A stretch of 64,000 bases of DNA from positions 1,483 through 65,482 of the forward strand of contig JAQTTG010000005.1 of the NCBI GenBank assembly GCA_028710885.1, given 5' to 3'. Of this stretch, positions 811 to 23,326 are shown one piece after another. Made by a program: the position numbers and the translations under genes. This DNA comes from Sulfuricurvum sp. (lineage in GTDB: Bacteria; Campylobacterota; Campylobacteria; Campylobacterales; Sulfurimonadaceae). The first letter of the stretch is position 1; each line of letters starts with the position of its first letter. The notes beneath the pieces were generated by a model that saw nothing but the letters and a program-made list of their open reading frames with translations, was not told where the DNA came from and did not search any database.

Positions 811-850
811 GTATAACGTTTGGCATGTCCGCTCGATGGAAGGGTTAGGC
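811..850 (-). repeat. Internally deleted attC site (40 bp), aacA4-like ends
   Basis: Minus strand GCCTAAC-CCTTC-CATCGAGCGGAC-ATG-CCAAAC-GTTATAC: RYYYAAC inverse core, 5-nt spacer, L'' start and GTT core, but the central stem is missing. Confidence 0.75.
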
Positions 851-885
851 AACACCGTTTGTATTGAACGATAAGCCATGCACAC

Positions 886-1230
886 TCATGTTTGCCCTAC
901 CAACATGGGGCGCGGATCGTAGTAGCCACGAACCGACATGATTTGTCCGTCTACGACGCGGATGTGCTCCGCAAACGGAATTGTTCCGAAGGTTGTATCG
1001 ATGTTGAGGAGGGCGACGCAGTGTTCACCATCGACGACGAGACGAATGATTTCGATATGCTTGACGATTCTCGAGAACCGCTCCGTGGCTTCAATGAAGG
1101 CCACCGCACCCTGGTACGTATTCATGGGAAAGACACCAATCACCTCCGGATGAATTGGGAGATTCTTTGGATCGTTTCGACGAACAGCATCGATGTATTT
1201 CTCGACCACGCTAGTTACTTGAGTTCTCAT
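886..1230 (-). CDS. SnoaL-like / NTF2 family protein
   Basis: 114 aa with Y..A, F..P, V.DG.H and DGQI.SVRGYYDP patterns; AAAAGGA RBS; GC-rich relative to its neighbours. Confidence 0.75.
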   Translation of the reverse strand: MRTQVTSVVEKYIDAVRRNDPKNLPIHPEVIGVFPMNTYQGAVAFIEATERFSRIVKHIEIIRLVVDGEHCVALLNIDTTFGTIPFAEHIRVVDGQIMSVRGYYDPRPMLVGQT

Positions 1231-1260
1231 ATGATTCCTTTTTGTTTATTTAATAGCTGT

Positions 1261-1332
1261 ATATAATGTTTAAAATGAGCAATTAAAAAGTCGCCCGCGG
1301 GTTTTTGATTGGTCTCTTTTGGTTTGTTAGAT
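1261..1332 (-). repeat. attC site (72 bp, AT-rich type), core G replaced by A
   Basis: Minus strand ATCTAAC (overlaps stop codon)-AAACC-AAAAGAG-AC-CAATCAAAAA-CCCGCGGGCGAC-TTTTTAATTG-CTCATT-TTAAAC-ATTATAT; GAG/CTC and CAATCAAAAA/TTTTTAATTG pair around an unpaired AC. Confidence 0.7.
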
Positions 1333-1974
1333 CTTCATGATTTGCATATTTGACATTCTTTGCCCATCTGCCCATTGTTCATAAGTTAACATTGTGTTCC
1401 AGCACGCTTCTTTACTCATTTGTTGTATTGGAATAAGGCTTTCAAAATGCTCATGATGCTTAATAAGTTGTCGTGTTTTTATGTCTTTACCCCAGCGAAT
1501 TTTCACTTTGTTGTCTTCAAGAGTATTTTGTTTTTCAGGGACATCTGGAACAAATAAAATGTTTTCTTCACCTTCTGCATTAAATGTTATATCTTTATAA
1601 ATTCCATCTTTAGACCATATAGCATGTCTCTCTAATTCAATATACTTAGGCTTGTTGTACCAAACTTTGTAGCCACATAGTATTTGTCCACCATTTAATT
1701 TAATATATTCTTCTACATTCAAGTCACAACAAGACTGTCTTGACCATGCTTCAGGCTCGATTTCAAGAAAAAAAGGCTCAAGATCACTGATTTTTCTGCA
1801 AATTTCTAATATATCATCATTTATACTTGTTGGAGTTGTCAGCCTCGTGGGATTAAAAAGCTCTTTCAAGCCTTTTTCTATTTCAAATTGACTAAGCTCT
1901 TTTGACTGACTGTTCTTTATTTGGTTTTGTCTTTTTTTCTCAGCCTTTTTTCTTTTATCCCGTTTAGTACTCAT
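1327..1974 (-). CDS. Hypothetical cassette protein with basic N-terminus and possible Cys-His-Asp triad
   Basis: Start placed at MSTKRDK (AAAGGA RBS); motifs CCDLNV...GG...GYKVW...IELERHAIW...KDIT...ILFVPD; stop codon overlaps the attC inverse core. Confidence 0.7.
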   Translation of the reverse strand: MSTKRDKRKKAEKKRQNQIKNSQSKELSQFEIEKGLKELFNPTRLTTPTSINDDILEICRKISDLEPFFLEIEPEAWSRQSCCDLNVEEYIKLNGGQILCGYKVWYNKPKYIELERHAIWSKDGIYKDITFNAEGEENILFVPDVPEKQNTLEDNKVKIRWGKDIKTRQLIKHHEHFESLIPIQQMSKEACWNTMLTYEQWADGQRMSNMQIMKI

Positions 1975-2075
1975 AACTTTTCCTTTATTGTTTAACAATT
2001 TATTCATACCAAAATATACCATTCTGGTAGAAATATCCAACCAAAATTTTGCAAATAGCCATATTTTTAAACATT

Positions 2076-3446
2076 TTACATCGTTTCTCTTAAAAAGACT
2101 TCCGCAAACGCTCCCACCGCACTCTCTATTTCCTCCATCTCAAACCCCCCGAATCCCATCCGTATGGCGTCCCATTCTCCCCCTGAGTAATCCTTGGCAA
2201 AATAGAGCTTGATTCCCGCTTCTTCGGCTCTTTGTCGCAATACGGAGAGGTCGATGTCTGATGCGGGACGGATATTGATCGAGAGACCGCCCCCTTCGCT
2301 AACAATCACTATCGAATCTCCGAGATATTTAATGAGAGATTGTTTCATCAGGTCGTGTTTTTTACGGTTCAGGTTTCGCACCCGTCGCAGATGACGCTCC
2401 CAATGCCCCTCATTCATGAACAGCTCCAGCGTCTTTTGAGTCATGAGGCTGACACGCGAAAAGGTGCCGTGAAAGGAGCGGTATCGATCCATCAGATGAC
2501 GAGGGAGTACGATATATCCGACGCGCAAAGCTGGCGAAAGGGCTTTTGCAAAGGTGCCGATGTAGATGACCCGCTCATTACTGTCGAGTCCTTGGAGCGA
2601 GGGGATAGGGCGGGAGCGATAGGTGAGTTCGCTGTCGTAGTCGTCTTCGATGATGTAGCCCTCATTCTCCTTTGCCCAGTTGAGAAGCCGTAGACGGTTT
2701 GCGACGGGCATTGCCGCACCTGTGGGGTACTGGTGCGAGGGGGTGATGTAGACTACGTGGGCACCGGAGGCACTTAGTTCATCGATTTTCAAACCGTTTT
2801 CATCGACTCCGATAGGGGTGATGTCGTAGTGATGGTGGGTGAAAACTTTTCGGGCGATATGGTAGCCGGGATGCTCGATAGCAAAATGTGGATGGGTCGG
2901 ACGGAGAATATCGGCGATTATCCCCATCGCATCGATAAATGCCCCCGTAACAATAATCTCCGATGCGTCGCACCGTACGCCTCGCAGTTCGGTGAGATAA
3001 CGCGCGATTTCGGTTCGTAGTCCAAATTCCCCTTGCGGATCCGGATACCCCCCCATATCGAGGGTTTTATCGATGGCACGGTTAAACAGCCGCTTCCAGA
3101 GTTTGAGAGGAAACACCTCTTTGGAGAGGCGGACGGGGTAAAAGTTGTAGCGGTAGGTGATGGCGGGTGTGTCGGCTGACTCTATCGTCGCAGAGTCACC
3201 AAGTACAATGAAATCGGCGTCCGCGACGTAGTAGCCGCTTTTGGGACGGCTCTCGATATACCCCTCGGCATAGAGTTGATTGTATGCCGATTCGACGGTG
3301 TTTTTGCTGATGCGGTACTCTTGGGAGATTTTGCGAATCGAGGGGAGTTTGCTCCCGATGGCAAGAGTAGTCGTAATGTCGTGTTTGAGTGCTTCGTAGA
3401 GCTGGATGTGCAGAGGAGTTTCGGATGCGGCGTCGAGGAGATACAT
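2076..3446 (-). CDS. MocR/GabR family regulator (GntR HTH + PLP aminotransferase-like domain)
   Basis: LPSIR...ISKNTVESAY HTH; YITPSHQYPTG, IIEDDYDSE and GTFAKALSPALRVGY motifs. Confidence 0.95.
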   Translation of the reverse strand: MYLLDAASETPLHIQLYEALKHDITTTLAIGSKLPSIRKISQEYRISKNTVESAYNQLYAEGYIESRPKSGYYVADADFIVLGDSATIESADTPAITYRYNFYPVRLSKEVFPLKLWKRLFNRAIDKTLDMGGYPDPQGEFGLRTEIARYLTELRGVRCDASEIIVTGAFIDAMGIIADILRPTHPHFAIEHPGYHIARKVFTHHHYDITPIGVDENGLKIDELSASGAHVVYITPSHQYPTGAAMPVANRLRLLNWAKENEGYIIEDDYDSELTYRSRPIPSLQGLDSNERVIYIGTFAKALSPALRVGYIVLPRHLMDRYRSFHGTFSRVSLMTQKTLELFMNEGHWERHLRRVRNLNRKKHDLMKQSLIKYLGDSIVIVSEGGGLSINIRPASDIDLSVLRQRAEEAGIKLYFAKDYSGGEWDAIRMGFGGFEMEEIESAVGAFAEVFLRETM

Positions 3447-3535
3447 AAACTGACCTCATAAAATTTAAATATTTTGTCACTTGCGCAGAGTGCAGATTGG
3501 CGGTATAGTATCATAAACTTTTTGAGGAAAGCGAT

Positions 3536-4153
3536 ATGAGACGTTCAGAATTTGAGGTCACCGATCCGCAAGCCATCGAATCGGTGTTGAGCGAATGTGA
3601 ATACGGGGTATTGTCGCTTGTGAGCCGTGGTGAGCCTTACGGTGTTGCACTCAATTTCGCGTATCGTGAGGGGGTCGTGTACTTTCACGGCAGTATCGAA
3701 GGGCGCAAAGTCGAAGCGATAGGGGATCGCGCGAAGGTGGCATTCTTGGTCGTAAAACCTTATGCCTATATCCCCTCGTATTTCAGCGATACGAGTGCGG
3801 CATATCCTGCGACGCAGTTTTTTACGTCGGTACATATCAGCGGTGAAGCGATACGGGTGAGCGATGAACGGGAAAAAGCGTTCGGATTGACGGCCCTGAT
3901 GGAGAAAATGCAGCCCGAGGGGAAATACGACGCCATCGATGCGGCGAACCCGATTTATACCAAGATGATGGAGCTAACAGGGGTCTATAAAATCGTACCG
4001 AGTACGATGACACTCAAAGTCAAAGCAGGGCAAAATTTACCAAAAGAGCGGTACGATACCCTTATCAAACACATAGAAGAGCGAAATGGCCCTGTCGATA
4101 GCGCAACACTTCAGTTGATGCGACAATTTCAGAAACAAGCAGATGTAAAATGA
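3536..4153 (+). CDS. Pyridoxamine 5'-phosphate oxidase-like / NimA flavin-nucleotide-binding protein
   Basis: MRRSEFE, PYGVALNF, YFHGS.EGRK and SVHISG motifs; divergent from MocR. Confidence 0.85.
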   Translation: MRRSEFEVTDPQAIESVLSECEYGVLSLVSRGEPYGVALNFAYREGVVYFHGSIEGRKVEAIGDRAKVAFLVVKPYAYIPSYFSDTSAAYPATQFFTSVHISGEAIRVSDEREKAFGLTALMEKMQPEGKYDAIDAANPIYTKMMELTGVYKIVPSTMTLKVKAGQNLPKERYDTLIKHIEERNGPVDSATLQLMRQFQKQADVK

Positions 4154-4590
4154 AAAAAGATTTCAAACCTCATTGGATATTTGATGACATATTAATAGAC
4201 TGGGATGAACTTGCACATTTATATAAGATTGCTCCATTAGGGAATAAGAATCCCAATGATTTGAAAATTGCTTTCGCTAACAGTATGTACAAATGCTTTA
4301 TTTATGATGGCAAAAAGTTGGTTGGTGTAGGGCGAGCTTTAGCGGACGGAGTCGATGTATCCTATATCTGTGATGTGGCAATCCATCCTGAGTATCAGCG
4401 GTGTGGGTTAGGTAAGCAGATTGTTAATAAATTGGTCGAATTTTCACAAGGGTATAATAAAATATTACTTTTTGCCAGTGCCGGAAAAGAACCGTTTTAT
4501 AGCAAACTCGGATTTGATAAAATGACGACGGCGATGGCGATTTTCAAAAATCGGGAAAGAGTTTTGGAGATGGGATTGATAGAGGAATAA
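4150..4590 (+). CDS. GNAT acetyltransferase
   Basis: DVAIHPEYQRCGLGK acetyl-CoA motif; FYSKLGF. Confidence 0.9.
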   Translation: MKKDFKPHWIFDDILIDWDELAHLYKIAPLGNKNPNDLKIAFANSMYKCFIYDGKKLVGVGRALADGVDVSYICDVAIHPEYQRCGLGKQIVNKLVEFSQGYNKILLFASAGKEPFYSKLGFDKMTTAMAIFKNRERVLEMGLIEE

Positions 4591-8346: not shown

Positions 8347-9051
8347 ATGTCAGTAATTGATTCATGGAAATCAAATACTTCTCTTGTATCTTACGGTTCT
8401 ACCAGTAATACGAAAAATGATTTTTCGTCGATATCAATGGGAAGTGATTATCAGGCCTTATGGAATCAGGCTACGAGTGGATTGTCTATTCAGCAAAAAA
8501 CCGAACTGTTTGCAAATACATTTGATCCGAATGCATCAGCAACCTCCGATCAAAATCGTCTCAATAATGCAGCAGAGAAGTTTCGACAATTAAGTTCTTT
8601 GTCTTCTGGGACTGACCAGACGAAGTTTACTAGCTATGCAAATGCGATTTCTGCTTTTTCAAATCTTTTAGATGATAGATCAAATATTTCGTCTCAATCT
8701 ATCACAGAAGCTGCCAATCAATATGACGTAACCAATATGACCACCAATGAGATGAACCAGATGGCAAATAACCTTTTTAAAAGTGGGGCAATTGATTTAG
8801 ATACCCTTGGTACATTAACTTTGATGCCTGCAAAGATTGATATGGATTCAAACGGTAATATTACAAATATCACTCCACTCCGAGATAATTCAACCCATTT
8901 TAATTATTTGAAAAACATTGAGGAAGGACTGAGTAATGCAAAAAGTACCGGTTCAAGTAGTACTCCTTATTTTCAAAAAGTTTATGATGTATTGTCTATG
9001 ATCAATCAGTTACACACATCTGGCTCTTCTAGGCTTGATACTGTAAGTTGA
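8347..9051 (+). CDS. Ser/Thr/Asn-rich hypothetical protein
   Basis: Start placed at MSVIDSW after AAGGAG; no hydrophobic signal peptide; internal YDVTNMT.NEM..M...L...G.I motif. Confidence 0.7.
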   Translation: MSVIDSWKSNTSLVSYGSTSNTKNDFSSISMGSDYQALWNQATSGLSIQQKTELFANTFDPNASATSDQNRLNNAAEKFRQLSSLSSGTDQTKFTSYANAISAFSNLLDDRSNISSQSITEAANQYDVTNMTTNEMNQMANNLFKSGAIDLDTLGTLTLMPAKIDMDSNGNITNITPLRDNSTHFNYLKNIEEGLSNAKSTGSSSTPYFQKVYDVLSMINQLHTSGSSRLDTVS

Positions 9052-21071: not shown

Positions 21072-21821
21072 ATGTTGAAAAATTCTAATCTGTTTTTGAT
21101 TTTGATAACTGCGGTTTCACTTAATGCGGGGGTCTATCTATCGCAGAGTGAAGAATACACGCAAGAGGGTGCATCAAGCTACTGCCGTGAGCATGGATGG
21201 CGGCCAATGCAAATCCAAGAGATTTTCAATCTTCCTAGCTCGACTCCATTTGTGCCAGGGTTTAGCTACTGGTCTGCGACCAATATTATGACGGGTGAAG
21301 CGATTATTGGCACTGGTAGTGAAGGGGATGGTGGAGTTCTAGCACATACAGGATTAGCGTATTATGCCAAAGAACGGAATGTTACCCCATCGCCGGAAAA
21401 CAAAAAAATAGCTGCAATCTGTACTGATGCTCCGCCGCTGAAGCAAATACGGAACTATACGCTTGAGAAGCTTGGGACAAAAGATGTAAAAAATGGTTTG
21501 CTTTGGCATTCACTCGATGCGACCGATAAAAAAGCAAAATATACCTATGAAGGTGCGGTTGAGATGTGTCAAAATTTCTCATTGGGGGGAAGAAGCTGGC
21601 GGTTACCAACACTCGATGAGATGTATAGTACGGTAGACTATAGCTTTAACCGTCCGACCATAGATATGAAGTATTTCGGTCCTGTAATGCAACGGTATTA
21701 TTGGACAAGTGATACTCTAAACGAAAATTCTGCTTTTGTGGTTGGATTTAAACTGGGTTCTGTAGCCACCGTGTCTATGAAAGAGGATGTCTATACTCGT
21801 TGTGTCAGTGAATTGGAATAG
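21072..21821 (+). CDS. Secreted DUF1566 (Lcl, C-type-lectin-fold) domain protein
   Basis: Signal peptide; GLLW...Y..A...C......WRLPT..E....YYW.S....RCV; second degenerate copy of the domain in the N-terminal half (YC...GWRP...YWS). Confidence 0.85.
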   Translation: MLKNSNLFLILITAVSLNAGVYLSQSEEYTQEGASSYCREHGWRPMQIQEIFNLPSSTPFVPGFSYWSATNIMTGEAIIGTGSEGDGGVLAHTGLAYYAKERNVTPSPENKKIAAICTDAPPLKQIRNYTLEKLGTKDVKNGLLWHSLDATDKKAKYTYEGAVEMCQNFSLGGRSWRLPTLDEMYSTVDYSFNRPTIDMKYFGPVMQRYYWTSDTLNENSAFVVGFKLGSVATVSMKEDVYTRCVSELE

Positions 21822-21861
21822 ATTAATAGATAGAGATACTTGTGGATAATAAAATTTAGAA

Positions 21862-21890
21862 AAAAATGATTTTTTGTCAAAATCATTTTT
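21862..21890. repeat. Perfect 12-bp inverted repeat AAAAATGATTTT-N5-AAAATCATTTTT
   Basis: Read directly; lies between the DUF1566 gene and its C-terminal copy. Confidence 0.8.
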
Positions 21891-21911
21891 ATACAGTAAT
21901 TAGGAAGTAAA

Positions 21912-22028
21912 ATGAAATTAACACCAACTAAGTTTAGTTTAATCCTCGGGTTCAAACTCGGAGGAGTAGCAACAGCTCCCAGGAGAGAATCGGCACACGC
22001 TCGATGCGTGAGTGAAGAAATACAATAG
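21912..22028 (+). pseudogene. 38-codon ORF that is an alternative DUF1566 C-terminus
   Basis: MKLTPTKFSLILGFKLGGVATAPRRESAHARCVSEEIQ* versus ...SAFVVGFKLGSVATVSMKEDVYTRCVSELE*; AGGAAG RBS-like sequence upstream. Confidence 0.75.
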
Positions 22029-22060: not shown

Positions 22061-23326
22061 TTGAATCACGACAGCGTACTAAATCAAAAAGCATTAGATT
22101 ATCATGAATACCCCCGTGCCGGTAAAATCGCAACCGAAATCACCAAATCTTTTGTGACTCAAGATGATTTGACATTGGCCTATTCTCCAGGAGTGGCAGC
22201 TCCATGTCTGGAGATCCAAAAAAATCCTGATGATGCCTATCGTTACACCTCAAAAGGGAACTTGATTGCCGTAATAAGTAACGGTACGGCGGTACTCGGT
22301 TTGGGTAATTTGGGAGCTTTAGCCTCCAAGCCTGTGATGGAAGGAAAAGCGATTCTTTTTAAAAAATTCAGTGATTTGGATGCATATGATATCGAAGTAG
22401 ATGAAACCGATATAGAGCGTTTTTGCGATGTTGTGACGGCTATTGCTCCGACGTTTGGGGGGATTAATCTCGAAGACATCAAAGCTCCTGAGTGTTTTGA
22501 GATCGAGCGTCGTTTAGTGGAACGCCTCGATATTCCCGTGATGCACGATGATCAACACGGTACAGCGGTTATCTCATCAGCAGGAATTATTAATGCGGCG
22601 CATATCACAGGACGCTCTTTAGGAGAGATGAAAATTGTGATCATAGGAGCAGGAGCTGCGGCAATCAGTTGTGGACGAATTTATCGTTTTATGGGAGTCA
22701 AGGAGATTTATATGTCCGATTCTAAGGGTTTAATCCATACGGGACGTCATGACCTTAACGCGCAAAAACTTGAATTTGCCGCACCAGAGGGGATGACACA
22801 ACGAGAAGCATTTGAGAATGCTGATGTTGTGGTTGGACTCTCCGCACCTGGGAGTTTTTCTTTGGAAGATATTGCTCTTATGGCACCTGAACCGATCATT
22901 TTTACCCTTGCTAATCCTCTTCCAGAACTTTTTCCAGAAGATGTCCGTTCTGCACGCCCCGATGCAATTATTGCAACCGGACGGAGTGATTACCCGAATC
23001 AGGTTAATAATGTTCTCGGATTTCCGTTTATCTTTCGAGGTGCTATGGATGTTCGTGCAAAAGTGATCAATATGGAGATGAAAGTGGCTGCATCGTATGC
23101 ACTAGCAACATTGACACGTCAGGAAATTCCACACTATTTGAATGAACTTTATGGAAAAGATTTGTTTTTTGGAAAAGAGTACATTATCCCTAAACCGTTC
23201 GATAAACGGCTTATCGTCGAAGTCTCTGCCAGTGTCGCGGAAGCGGCGGTAAAAAGCGGAGTGGCACGTATGGAGAGTTTCGATGTTGAAGTCTATAAAC
23301 GCCAACTTGCACAACGGATAAAATAA
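22061..23326 (+). CDS. NAD(P)-dependent malic enzyme (no PTA domain)
   Basis: YSPGVA, NGTAVLGLG, GGINLEDI, HDDQHGT, GAGAA and NQVNNVLGFP motifs. Confidence 0.95.
   Translation: MNHDSVLNQKALDYHEYPRAGKIATEITKSFVTQDDLTLAYSPGVAAPCLEIQKNPDDAYRYTSKGNLIAVISNGTAVLGLGNLGALASKPVMEGKAILFKKFSDLDAYDIEVDETDIERFCDVVTAIAPTFGGINLEDIKAPECFEIERRLVERLDIPVMHDDQHGTAVISSAGIINAAHITGRSLGEMKIVIIGAGAAAISCGRIYRFMGVKEIYMSDSKGLIHTGRHDLNAQKLEFAAPEGMTQREAFENADVVVGLSAPGSFSLEDIALMAPEPIIFTLANPLPELFPEDVRSARPDAIIATGRSDYPNQVNNVLGFPFIFRGAMDVRAKVINMEMKVAASYALATLTRQEIPHYLNELYGKDLFFGKEYIIPKPFDKRLIVEVSASVAEAAVKSGVARMESFDVEVYKRQLAQRIK

Follow-up and report, generated by a model that had tools for sequence, protein, structure and literature searches.

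An orphan 3' gene fragment beside a DUF1566 gene of Sulfuricurvum is very likely the right junction of a GInt-like island

The stretch of DNA analyzed here, termed the window, comprises 64,000 nucleotides of a Sulfuricurvum sp. genome (NCBI GenBank assembly GCA_028710885.1, contig JAQTTG010000005.1, positions 1,483 to 65,482 of the forward strand). It contains an intact gene for a lectin-like DUF1566 protein, in the following called gene A, and shortly behind it an open reading frame (ORF) of 38 codons that resembles the C-terminus of gene A's product. An initial annotation had interpreted this arrangement as either the remnant of a deleted paralogue or a silent donor cassette. We consider it very likely that a GInt-like island has split a resident DUF1566 gene, in the following called gene B, that the short ORF represents the attR junction of this island, and that gene A belongs to its cargo. 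The case is an ordinary integration scar and not a cassette system.

Gene A (21072-21821, plus strand) encodes 249 amino acids and matches the Pfam family PF07603 (Lcl_C) over residues 136-245 with E=4.6e-22 and 79 bits, the gathering cut-off being 34.9. The ORF (21912-22028, plus strand) starts 90 bp past the stop codon of gene A, and the last 25 codons of gene A (21744-21818) pair with ORF codons 13-37 (21948-22022). Our recount agrees with the annotated distance and with the 14 of 25 shared amino acids; at the DNA level the annotated homology is real, and the exact number of identical nucleotides is 43 of 75 (57%) and not 44. Codon positions 1 and 2 are identical at 35 of 50 sites, third positions at 8 of 25. 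When the complete 2.64-Mb genome was searched in six frames with the C-terminus of gene A, the sole significant match besides gene A itself was the ORF (E ~3e-5), and the ORF matches the C-termini of orthologues in relatives with E down to 1.6e-14; the resemblance is therefore real and beyond chance. A search for more isolated C-terminal copies had been proposed; sensitive tblastn and blastn-short searches of the genome found no further orphan C-termini, so that the remnant is single. Its conserved framework with variable tip residues is the normal conservation pattern of orthologues, the tip being the most variable part of the domain. A third and much shorter DUF1566 protein of 139 aa, 26% identical to the domain of gene A and also ending in …FIRCVRKIK, is encoded on another contig (G000:C27:34796-35113; L003 1495-1914, minus strand), where it has a gene for a potassium transporter on one side and a pair of histidine kinase and response regulator genes on the other.

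The sequence that the orphan fragment continues lies on that other contig, C27, of the genome under study (G000), the contig of the window being C29. Gene B (G000:C27:17566-18255, minus strand) is a truncated DUF1566 homologue, 52% identical to gene A. It is open for 229 codons, but its homology ends at codon 225 (…NEKEAYVV), with only VKL and a stop codon behind it, and this end is exactly the point where the homology of the ORF begins (…GFKLGG…). Genes for a DJ-1/PfpI protein and for EF-P lie upstream of gene B, and 125 bp downstream of it starts a gene for a 406-aa tyrosine integrase (PF00589). The displaced 3' end of gene B in the window (GFKLGGVATAPRRESAHARCVSEEIQ and a stop; 21948-22028, plus strand) is complementary to the cut in gene B, and the resident right flank is formed by a malic enzyme gene (22061-23326, plus strand; Pfam malic and Malic_M), which starts 33 bp past the remnant, with a spacing as in relatives. 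By its composition, the ORF consists of 12 island-derived codons (MKLTPTKFSLIL, with AGGAAG and the ATG) fused in frame to 26 host-derived codons, and we read it as a junction artefact, namely the attR-side half of the split gene B. Of the previously suggested remnant of a deleted paralogue, the remnant of a second DUF1566 gene thus stands, whereas the deletion does not, as the other 225 codons are intact on C27 beyond the island. Gene B is alone in its 90% cluster, and no intact allele of it was found in the same species.

The uninterrupted state of the locus is found in other Sulfuricurvum genomes, which served as relatives throughout; copies were counted over 66 genomes of the genus at a threshold of E <= 1e-30. 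In at least 13 relatives, a single full-length gene lies beside DJ-1 and EF-P, and wherever the flank reaches far enough, the malic enzyme gene follows ~30 bp after the DUF1566 gene; it is directly downstream of an intact DUF1566 gene in G002, G006, G076 and G075. G076 has the gene closest to gene B (78% identical), G075 has the one closest to the gene B counterpart of a further genome, G060, and in both of them EF-P, DJ-1, the intact gene and the malic enzyme gene are contiguous within 3.7 kb, from which it follows that the DNA between the two halves of gene B was inserted. Two copies, one of the A-type and one truncated copy of the B-type, occur in only 2 of the 66 genomes, namely G000 and G060. 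Besides G060, the other 65 genomes comprise 36 with one copy and 28 with none. A full second DUF1566 gene at this locus, which had been envisaged for relatives, is present in tandem in none of those searched.

The occupied state recurs in a second species. In G060, DJ-1 is followed by a gene that is cut at the identical point (…EREAYVVVKL and a stop) and then by an integrase gene whose product is 82% identical, and on another contig of that genome follow in order a 92%-identical gene A, 1.5 kb of cargo with three small ORFs, the terminal segment of the island, a remnant and the malic enzyme gene. The G060 remnant is in frame as well (GFKLGSVATVNKTESAYVRCISE and a stop), which gives the same fusion of island and host sequence in 35 codons. 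The left junction is also present on the metagenomic contig L037 (integrase 85% identical), which begins with …LNAQEAYVVVKL and a stop; its left flank …NAQEAYVVVKL, again with a stop, represents a third allele of a host, which is likewise cut at this codon. A scan of genome contigs with the integrase gave the record of G060 only. For the comparison of junctions, we used attB from G076 and G075, attL from G000, G060 and L037, and attR from G000 and G060. In each of three host backgrounds, attL is found at one and the same codon; attR was seen in two of them (G000, G060). With the insertion point marked by a slash, the empty attB of G076 reads …GCGTACGTCGTC/GGATTCAAACTCGGAGG…, attL of G000 on C27 reads …GCGTATGTTGTG/GTTAAGCTATAATACTG…, and attR of G000 in the window reads …TTTAATCCTC/GGGTTCAAACTCGGAGG…. 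The junctions share imperfect direct repeats of 10-11 nt (GGTT-AAGCT versus GGTTCAAACT), with the attL copy G-GTT-AAGCT on C27 and the attR copy GGGTTCAAACT at 21948-21958 (plus strand).

As a side observation on the fusions, the island end provides AGGAAG and an in-frame ATG both in G000 (window 21900-21914) and in G060 (L031 1465-1479), and the fusion ORFs of 38 and 35 codons end 33 and 11 bp before the start of the malic enzyme gene, respectively. The fusion ORFs could couple the expression of the downstream gene, or they could be a coincidence of descent.

According to the mechanism that we propose, the GInt-like element would insert site-specifically between the codons for …AYVV and GFKLG… of gene B. 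The 225 codons of the 5' part would stay by DJ-1, now ending in three island codons and a stop, whereas the last 26 codons would be moved to the far end of the island, beside the malic enzyme gene, where island sequence would happen to give these displaced codons an in-frame ATG. Gene A is a complete and selectively maintained allele of the same family that stems from another Sulfuricurvum lineage and travels as cargo near the right end of the island. It is not the parent of the remnant, and it probably substitutes for the gene that the island breaks. The element may be mobile to the present day.

The phylogenetic placement of the gene parts agrees with such a dual origin. In a maximum-likelihood tree of the 5' bodies, the gene A copy of G000 is sister to that of G060 within an A-like clade that has a long stem (support 100/99), while gene B of G000 groups with G076, G059 and G041, and gene B of G060 with G075. 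The tips nearest to the G000 remnant are those of G076, G041 and G059 (0.74-0.76 nucleotide identity), with which it has the rare GFKLGG in common, and its residues APRRESAHA resemble APKKESVHV of G076 and G059; the nearest tip of the G060 remnant is that of G075 (0.91). Each remnant is hence concordant with its host lineage, and on this evidence the remnants belong to the hosts and gene A to the island. Between the two island copies of gene A (G000 versus G060), dN/dS is 0.06 at a dS of 0.39, which shows purifying selection on gene A. In other Sulfuricurvum lineages (G081, G063, G080; loci L042-L048), an A-like gene is the sole and chromosomal copy, and the A-type gene in G060 and on the metagenomic contig L077 keeps 115-155 nt of an upstream flank that is typical of one such chromosomal A-like locus. 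From this kept flank we conclude that gene A was copied from the chromosome of that A-like lineage. Beyond the island itself, the A-like body is 85-87% identical at the DNA level between L046 and L042/L043, which are metagenomic and NCBI contigs of Sulfuricurvum, with similarity beginning at the start codon, whereas the neighboring MoaA gene and a gene for a 205-aa protein are only 67-72% identical; as the body is closer than its flanks, the allele has spread horizontally, as a roughly gene-sized unit, by some route.

The left end of the island, which lies outside the window, carries an operon of four genes with overlapping starts and stops (G000:C27:11748-17441, minus strand), whose products have, in order, 406 aa (PF00589), 807 aa (a second PF00589 protein), 529 aa (no Pfam match) and 160 aa. 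The same four-gene block, with products of ~400/800/535/160 aa and integrase identities of 52-85%, is present in five metagenomic homologues (L037-L041), and the cargo differs directly after gene 4 or 5 in G000, L037, L038, L039 and L041. A structural model of the 529-aa protein (14-sequence alignment, mean pLDDT 70) gave XerH (5jjv_B) as the best Foldseek match with a probability of 0.94 and E=6e-3, followed by Cre structures; one homologue carries the integrase SAM-like domain PF13102, and the family keeps recombinase-like motifs that include the invariant …NHHSFGTTDSY…. These indications, weak but consistent, suggest a recombinase fold for the 529-aa protein. A profile of its family gave no meaningful match among PDB sequences, the 807-aa protein, compared with plasmids by tblastn, matched nothing but distant integrases of Bacillus (25% identical), and NCBIfam has no specific model that matches the proteins of the recombinase operon.

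The right end is an AT-rich terminal segment of 122 bp (21826-21947, plus strand; 78% A+T), which aligns almost base for base with the segment in front of the G060 remnant. The 1.5 kb of other cargo that G060 has between gene A and this segment are absent there in the window. This alignment identifies the 90 bp between gene A and the ORF as the conserved right end of the element. It contains the perfect 12-bp inverted repeat already reported for this spacer (AAAAATGATTTT N5 AAAATCATTTTT; 21862-21890), which we located with arms at 21862-21873 and 21879-21890. The terminal segment partly recurs in L077/L078, the palindrome is conserved in G060 and L077, and its half-site TCAAAATCAT is also found ~25 bp inside the left end of the island; the palindrome is probably a docking motif for a recombinase. 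The left-end motif GTTCAAAWTCAT is kept in all five members of the family that were examined, those that have other targets among them. When metagenome contigs were scanned for the exact pattern of the palindrome region, there was no match. In a search of the terminal segment for an outward promoter, consensus sites were no more numerous than in shuffled sequences (7 versus 5.5), and the segment has no terminator.

Three of the metagenomic homologues (L038, L039, L041; integrases 52-68% identical) keep GTTAAnnTATAAT…GTTCAAAWTCAT in their first 100 bases but adjoin sequence that is not of the DUF1566 type, which indicates that the island family has other insertion targets. In the four contigs that were looked at, the assembly begins 160-220 bp upstream of the integrase gene and thus near the left boundary of the element, which suggests strain-level presence and absence in those samples.

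The right-hand part of the cargo would occupy window positions 1-21071, its leftward extent being the conjectural side. By Pfam annotation, it encodes a GntR-aminotransferase regulator, a PNPOx-like protein, an EamA transporter, a nitroreductase, an SDR protein, a penicillin-binding/class-D-like protein, RibB, an aldo-keto reductase, and AraC, HPP and TetR proteins. These accessory genes form a patchwork, and relatives match the first 20 kb of the window only as shuffled patches elsewhere. The cargo on the side of C27 (G000:C27:5527-10888) comprises a NERD nuclease that bears a topoisomerase zinc ribbon, a member of the RmuC family and a protein of 777 aa that matches SMC_N weakly, a set that looks like cargo for phage defence or DNA processing. 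Scattered within both cargo parts are stretches of 60-125 bp (window 1263-1329, 2029-2112 and 4028-4090; C27:4394-4519 and 8419-8540) that recur at many places of the genome and in relatives with 79-93% identity and could represent either sites of cassette recombination or small repeats.

Some findings weigh against the explanation by an island. The two junctions are on separate contigs, and the ends of C27 and C29 do not overlap, although other contigs of the assembly overlap by 127 bp; we therefore infer the continuity and the size of the island. The chemistry of the crossover is inferred as well. The imperfect core of attL and attR (GGTT-AAGCT versus GGTTCAAACT) leaves the crossover points undefined, because a strictly conservative exchange with an identical overlap fails to restore the reading frame of attB. 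Moreover, models in which gene A was captured by aberrant excision had to be rejected, as the captured DNA falls on the wrong side of the terminal segment. With regard to contiguity, five relatives have homologues of C27:180-1714 at a distance of 1.4-3 kb from homologues of window positions 834-4160, in an orientation that fits C27 (reverse) followed by C29 (forward), which supports the joining of the contigs in this order. The insert would then comprise at least 17.5 and 23.4 kb on the two contigs, i.e. at least ~41 kb.

What other processes could have shaped the DUF1566 genes? An incidental reassortment of tips, in which the recombinases of the island, or homologous recombination helped by the island, join gene bodies to foreign tips, would add to the island explanation, but we regard it as rather unlikely. 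In its favor, gene A and the resident remnant keep a recombination site at the same codon, and the site of gene A itself (GTGGTT/GGATTTAAACTGGGT) differs from the right half of attB defined for G060 at only 1 of 15 bases. Chimeric C-termini, for which a check had been proposed, do occur among natural alleles. L043 and L042 from the A-like clade have bodies that are 85-89% identical to A-type genes at the DNA level, whereas their tips are only 58-64% identical and have their nearest counterparts in distant lineages. A three-sequence breakpoint test placed the switch -4 to +5 nt from the insertion point (Fisher p ~1e-11 to 1e-13; two controls were flat), and synonymous differences affect 1-4 of 12-15 codons immediately upstream but 4-8 of 8-9 framework codons immediately downstream. 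L077 and L042 are 97% identical over the ~840 nt that lead to the junction region, past which they are unrelated.

Such mosaics may, however, have arisen without any recombinase of the island. Their breakpoints are resolved to ~30 nt only, in a handful of alleles, and pairwise max-chi-square mapping of breakpoints is biased to the start of the variable residues and has a poor resolution. L042 and L043 are vertical relatives, 88% identical in flank and body, and between them the switch lies at +27, past the framework codons. In P0071 the switch lies ~90 nt upstream, and two further alleles, L048 and P0069, have a mosaic 5' end, so that ordinary homologous recombination evidently acts on the gene. 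Homologous recombination explains the mosaics equally well as site-specific exchange, since an exchange would stop near the same place anyway, where the tips grow too divergent. Among the few alleles, no product that joins a gene A body to the remnant of this genome was seen. L077 (1640-1960) and L078 also have an arrangement of their own: an A-type gene is followed by ~110 nt and then by a partial terminal segment that includes the palindrome, and this copy of the segment breaks off just past the ATG and runs into a FIST-MCP gene. In this arrangement, either the end of an island has been truncated or an island has collapsed.

If the reassortment of tips took place nevertheless, the traffic of islands at one codon would make a natural domain shuffler of a surface lectin-like protein, which re-pairs bodies with predicted ligand-binding tips across species; on balance we doubt that this is the case. 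The island-borne allele, the split body and the displaced tip all keep one recombination site on which the recombinases, or recombination between co-resident copies with subsequent excision, could act, and the junction mosaics could be the products.

That the ORF is the remnant of a tandem paralogue, i.e. of a second DUF1566 gene after gene A of which all but the last 27 codons were deleted in place, fits the window alone, where a homologous 3' end stands isolated behind a gene, but it is very improbable. The absent 225 codons sit elsewhere, cut at the complementary point and adjoining an integrase gene, none of the searched genomes of the genus has a tandem pair, as the 36 genomes with one copy and the 28 with none illustrate, and the spacer between gene A and the remnant is the conserved end of the island and not decayed coding sequence. 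We reject a tandem-paralogue deletion by synteny and copy number. Least probable of all, and hardly to be credited, is a dedicated silent cassette by which a system akin to diversity-generating retroelements (DGRs) or to antigenic variation would reprogram the tip of gene A: natural tip mosaics and the position of the tip as the most variable part of the lectin-like domain would be in line with it, but the genome has no reverse transcriptase (no RVT_1 match, while control genomes gave matches) and the mismatches are not adenine-specific (A in 10 of 32 on the side of the remnant and in 5 of 32 on the side of gene A), both as initially annotated and together sufficient to rule out a DGR, the remnant is single and not part of a cassette array, its tip residues are those of its own lineage, 57% DNA identity with third positions matching at 8 of 25 leaves no gene-conversion tract, and integration fully accounts for the origin of the remnant.

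For annotation, the integration scar described here means that a divergent 3' fragment that stands alone beside an intact homologue can represent an attR scar whose other junction is on a different contig, and neither a gene nor a cassette should be annotated for the 38-codon ORF. The island, in turn, represents a GInt-type family with three recombinases in Campylobacterota that has a defined protein-coding target and offers clean examples of attB, attL and attR from three or more host backgrounds. Most unusually, it brings an intact allele, under purifying selection, of the gene that it destroys, and its insertion would at one stroke swap the surface-protein allele of the host for a foreign one. 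Should the junction-centered mosaics be products of the recombinases, they would represent a simple route to the exchange of binding tips that does not involve a retroelement.

How does the island compare with known systems? With DGRs and silent cassettes (e.g. pilS/pilE), the locus has in common that a lectin-like C-terminal variable region lies beside a non-identical second copy. In contrast to those systems, the locus lacks a reverse transcriptase, an adenine bias, a cassette array and near-identical flanks that could serve in conversion, the second copy is of another origin, and the identity of 57% is far below that of template and variable repeat pairs of DGRs. Classical islands and prophages that integrate at the 3' ends of genes, such as those of the tRNA/tmRNA type (compare also the dusA-specific integrases, PMC4482086), likewise leave a displaced partial target at the far junction that resembles an orphan duplicate. 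They usually rebuild the target with a replaced end at attL, whereas in the present case attL is not rebuilt (VKL and a stop) and a whole substitute is placed near attR.

Similarities exist also to SE elements and Tn554, which are likewise site-specific elements that have multiple recombinases and a small auxiliary protein, lack terminal inverted repeats and form hybrid junctions. However, Tn554 has only two recombinases, and SE elements, which have the order intA, tfp, intB, srap with a non-catalytic protein in second position (PMC10214605), have been reported only in Gammaproteobacteria, whereas the second protein of the Sulfuricurvum island has a Pfam integrase domain. GInts consist of ginABCD, which encode three integrases and a small protein, followed by cargo and an AT-rich 3' end, with imperfect repeats that measure 10-17 nt (Bardaji et al. 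2017, PMC5385486), and according to a 2023 survey they are found in Gamma- and Betaproteobacteria (PMC10214605). Excision as a circular molecule, with all four genes required, likewise characterizes GInts. By its architecture, rather than by homology to Gin sequences, the Sulfuricurvum element can be regarded as GInt-like: it has an operon of overlapping genes for three recombinase-type proteins and a small protein at one end, a variable cargo that stems from related bacteria, a far end that is short and AT-rich and contains conserved stretches, and, like the GInts that insert within a host gene or at its end, a site-specific insertion with imperfect repeats that are hybrids of element and host. 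It differs from GInts in that its host belongs to the Campylobacterota and its target is a DUF1566 gene, in that its third protein keeps recombinase-like motifs whereas GinC has been described as lacking RHRY, and in that it carries an intact homologue of its own target.

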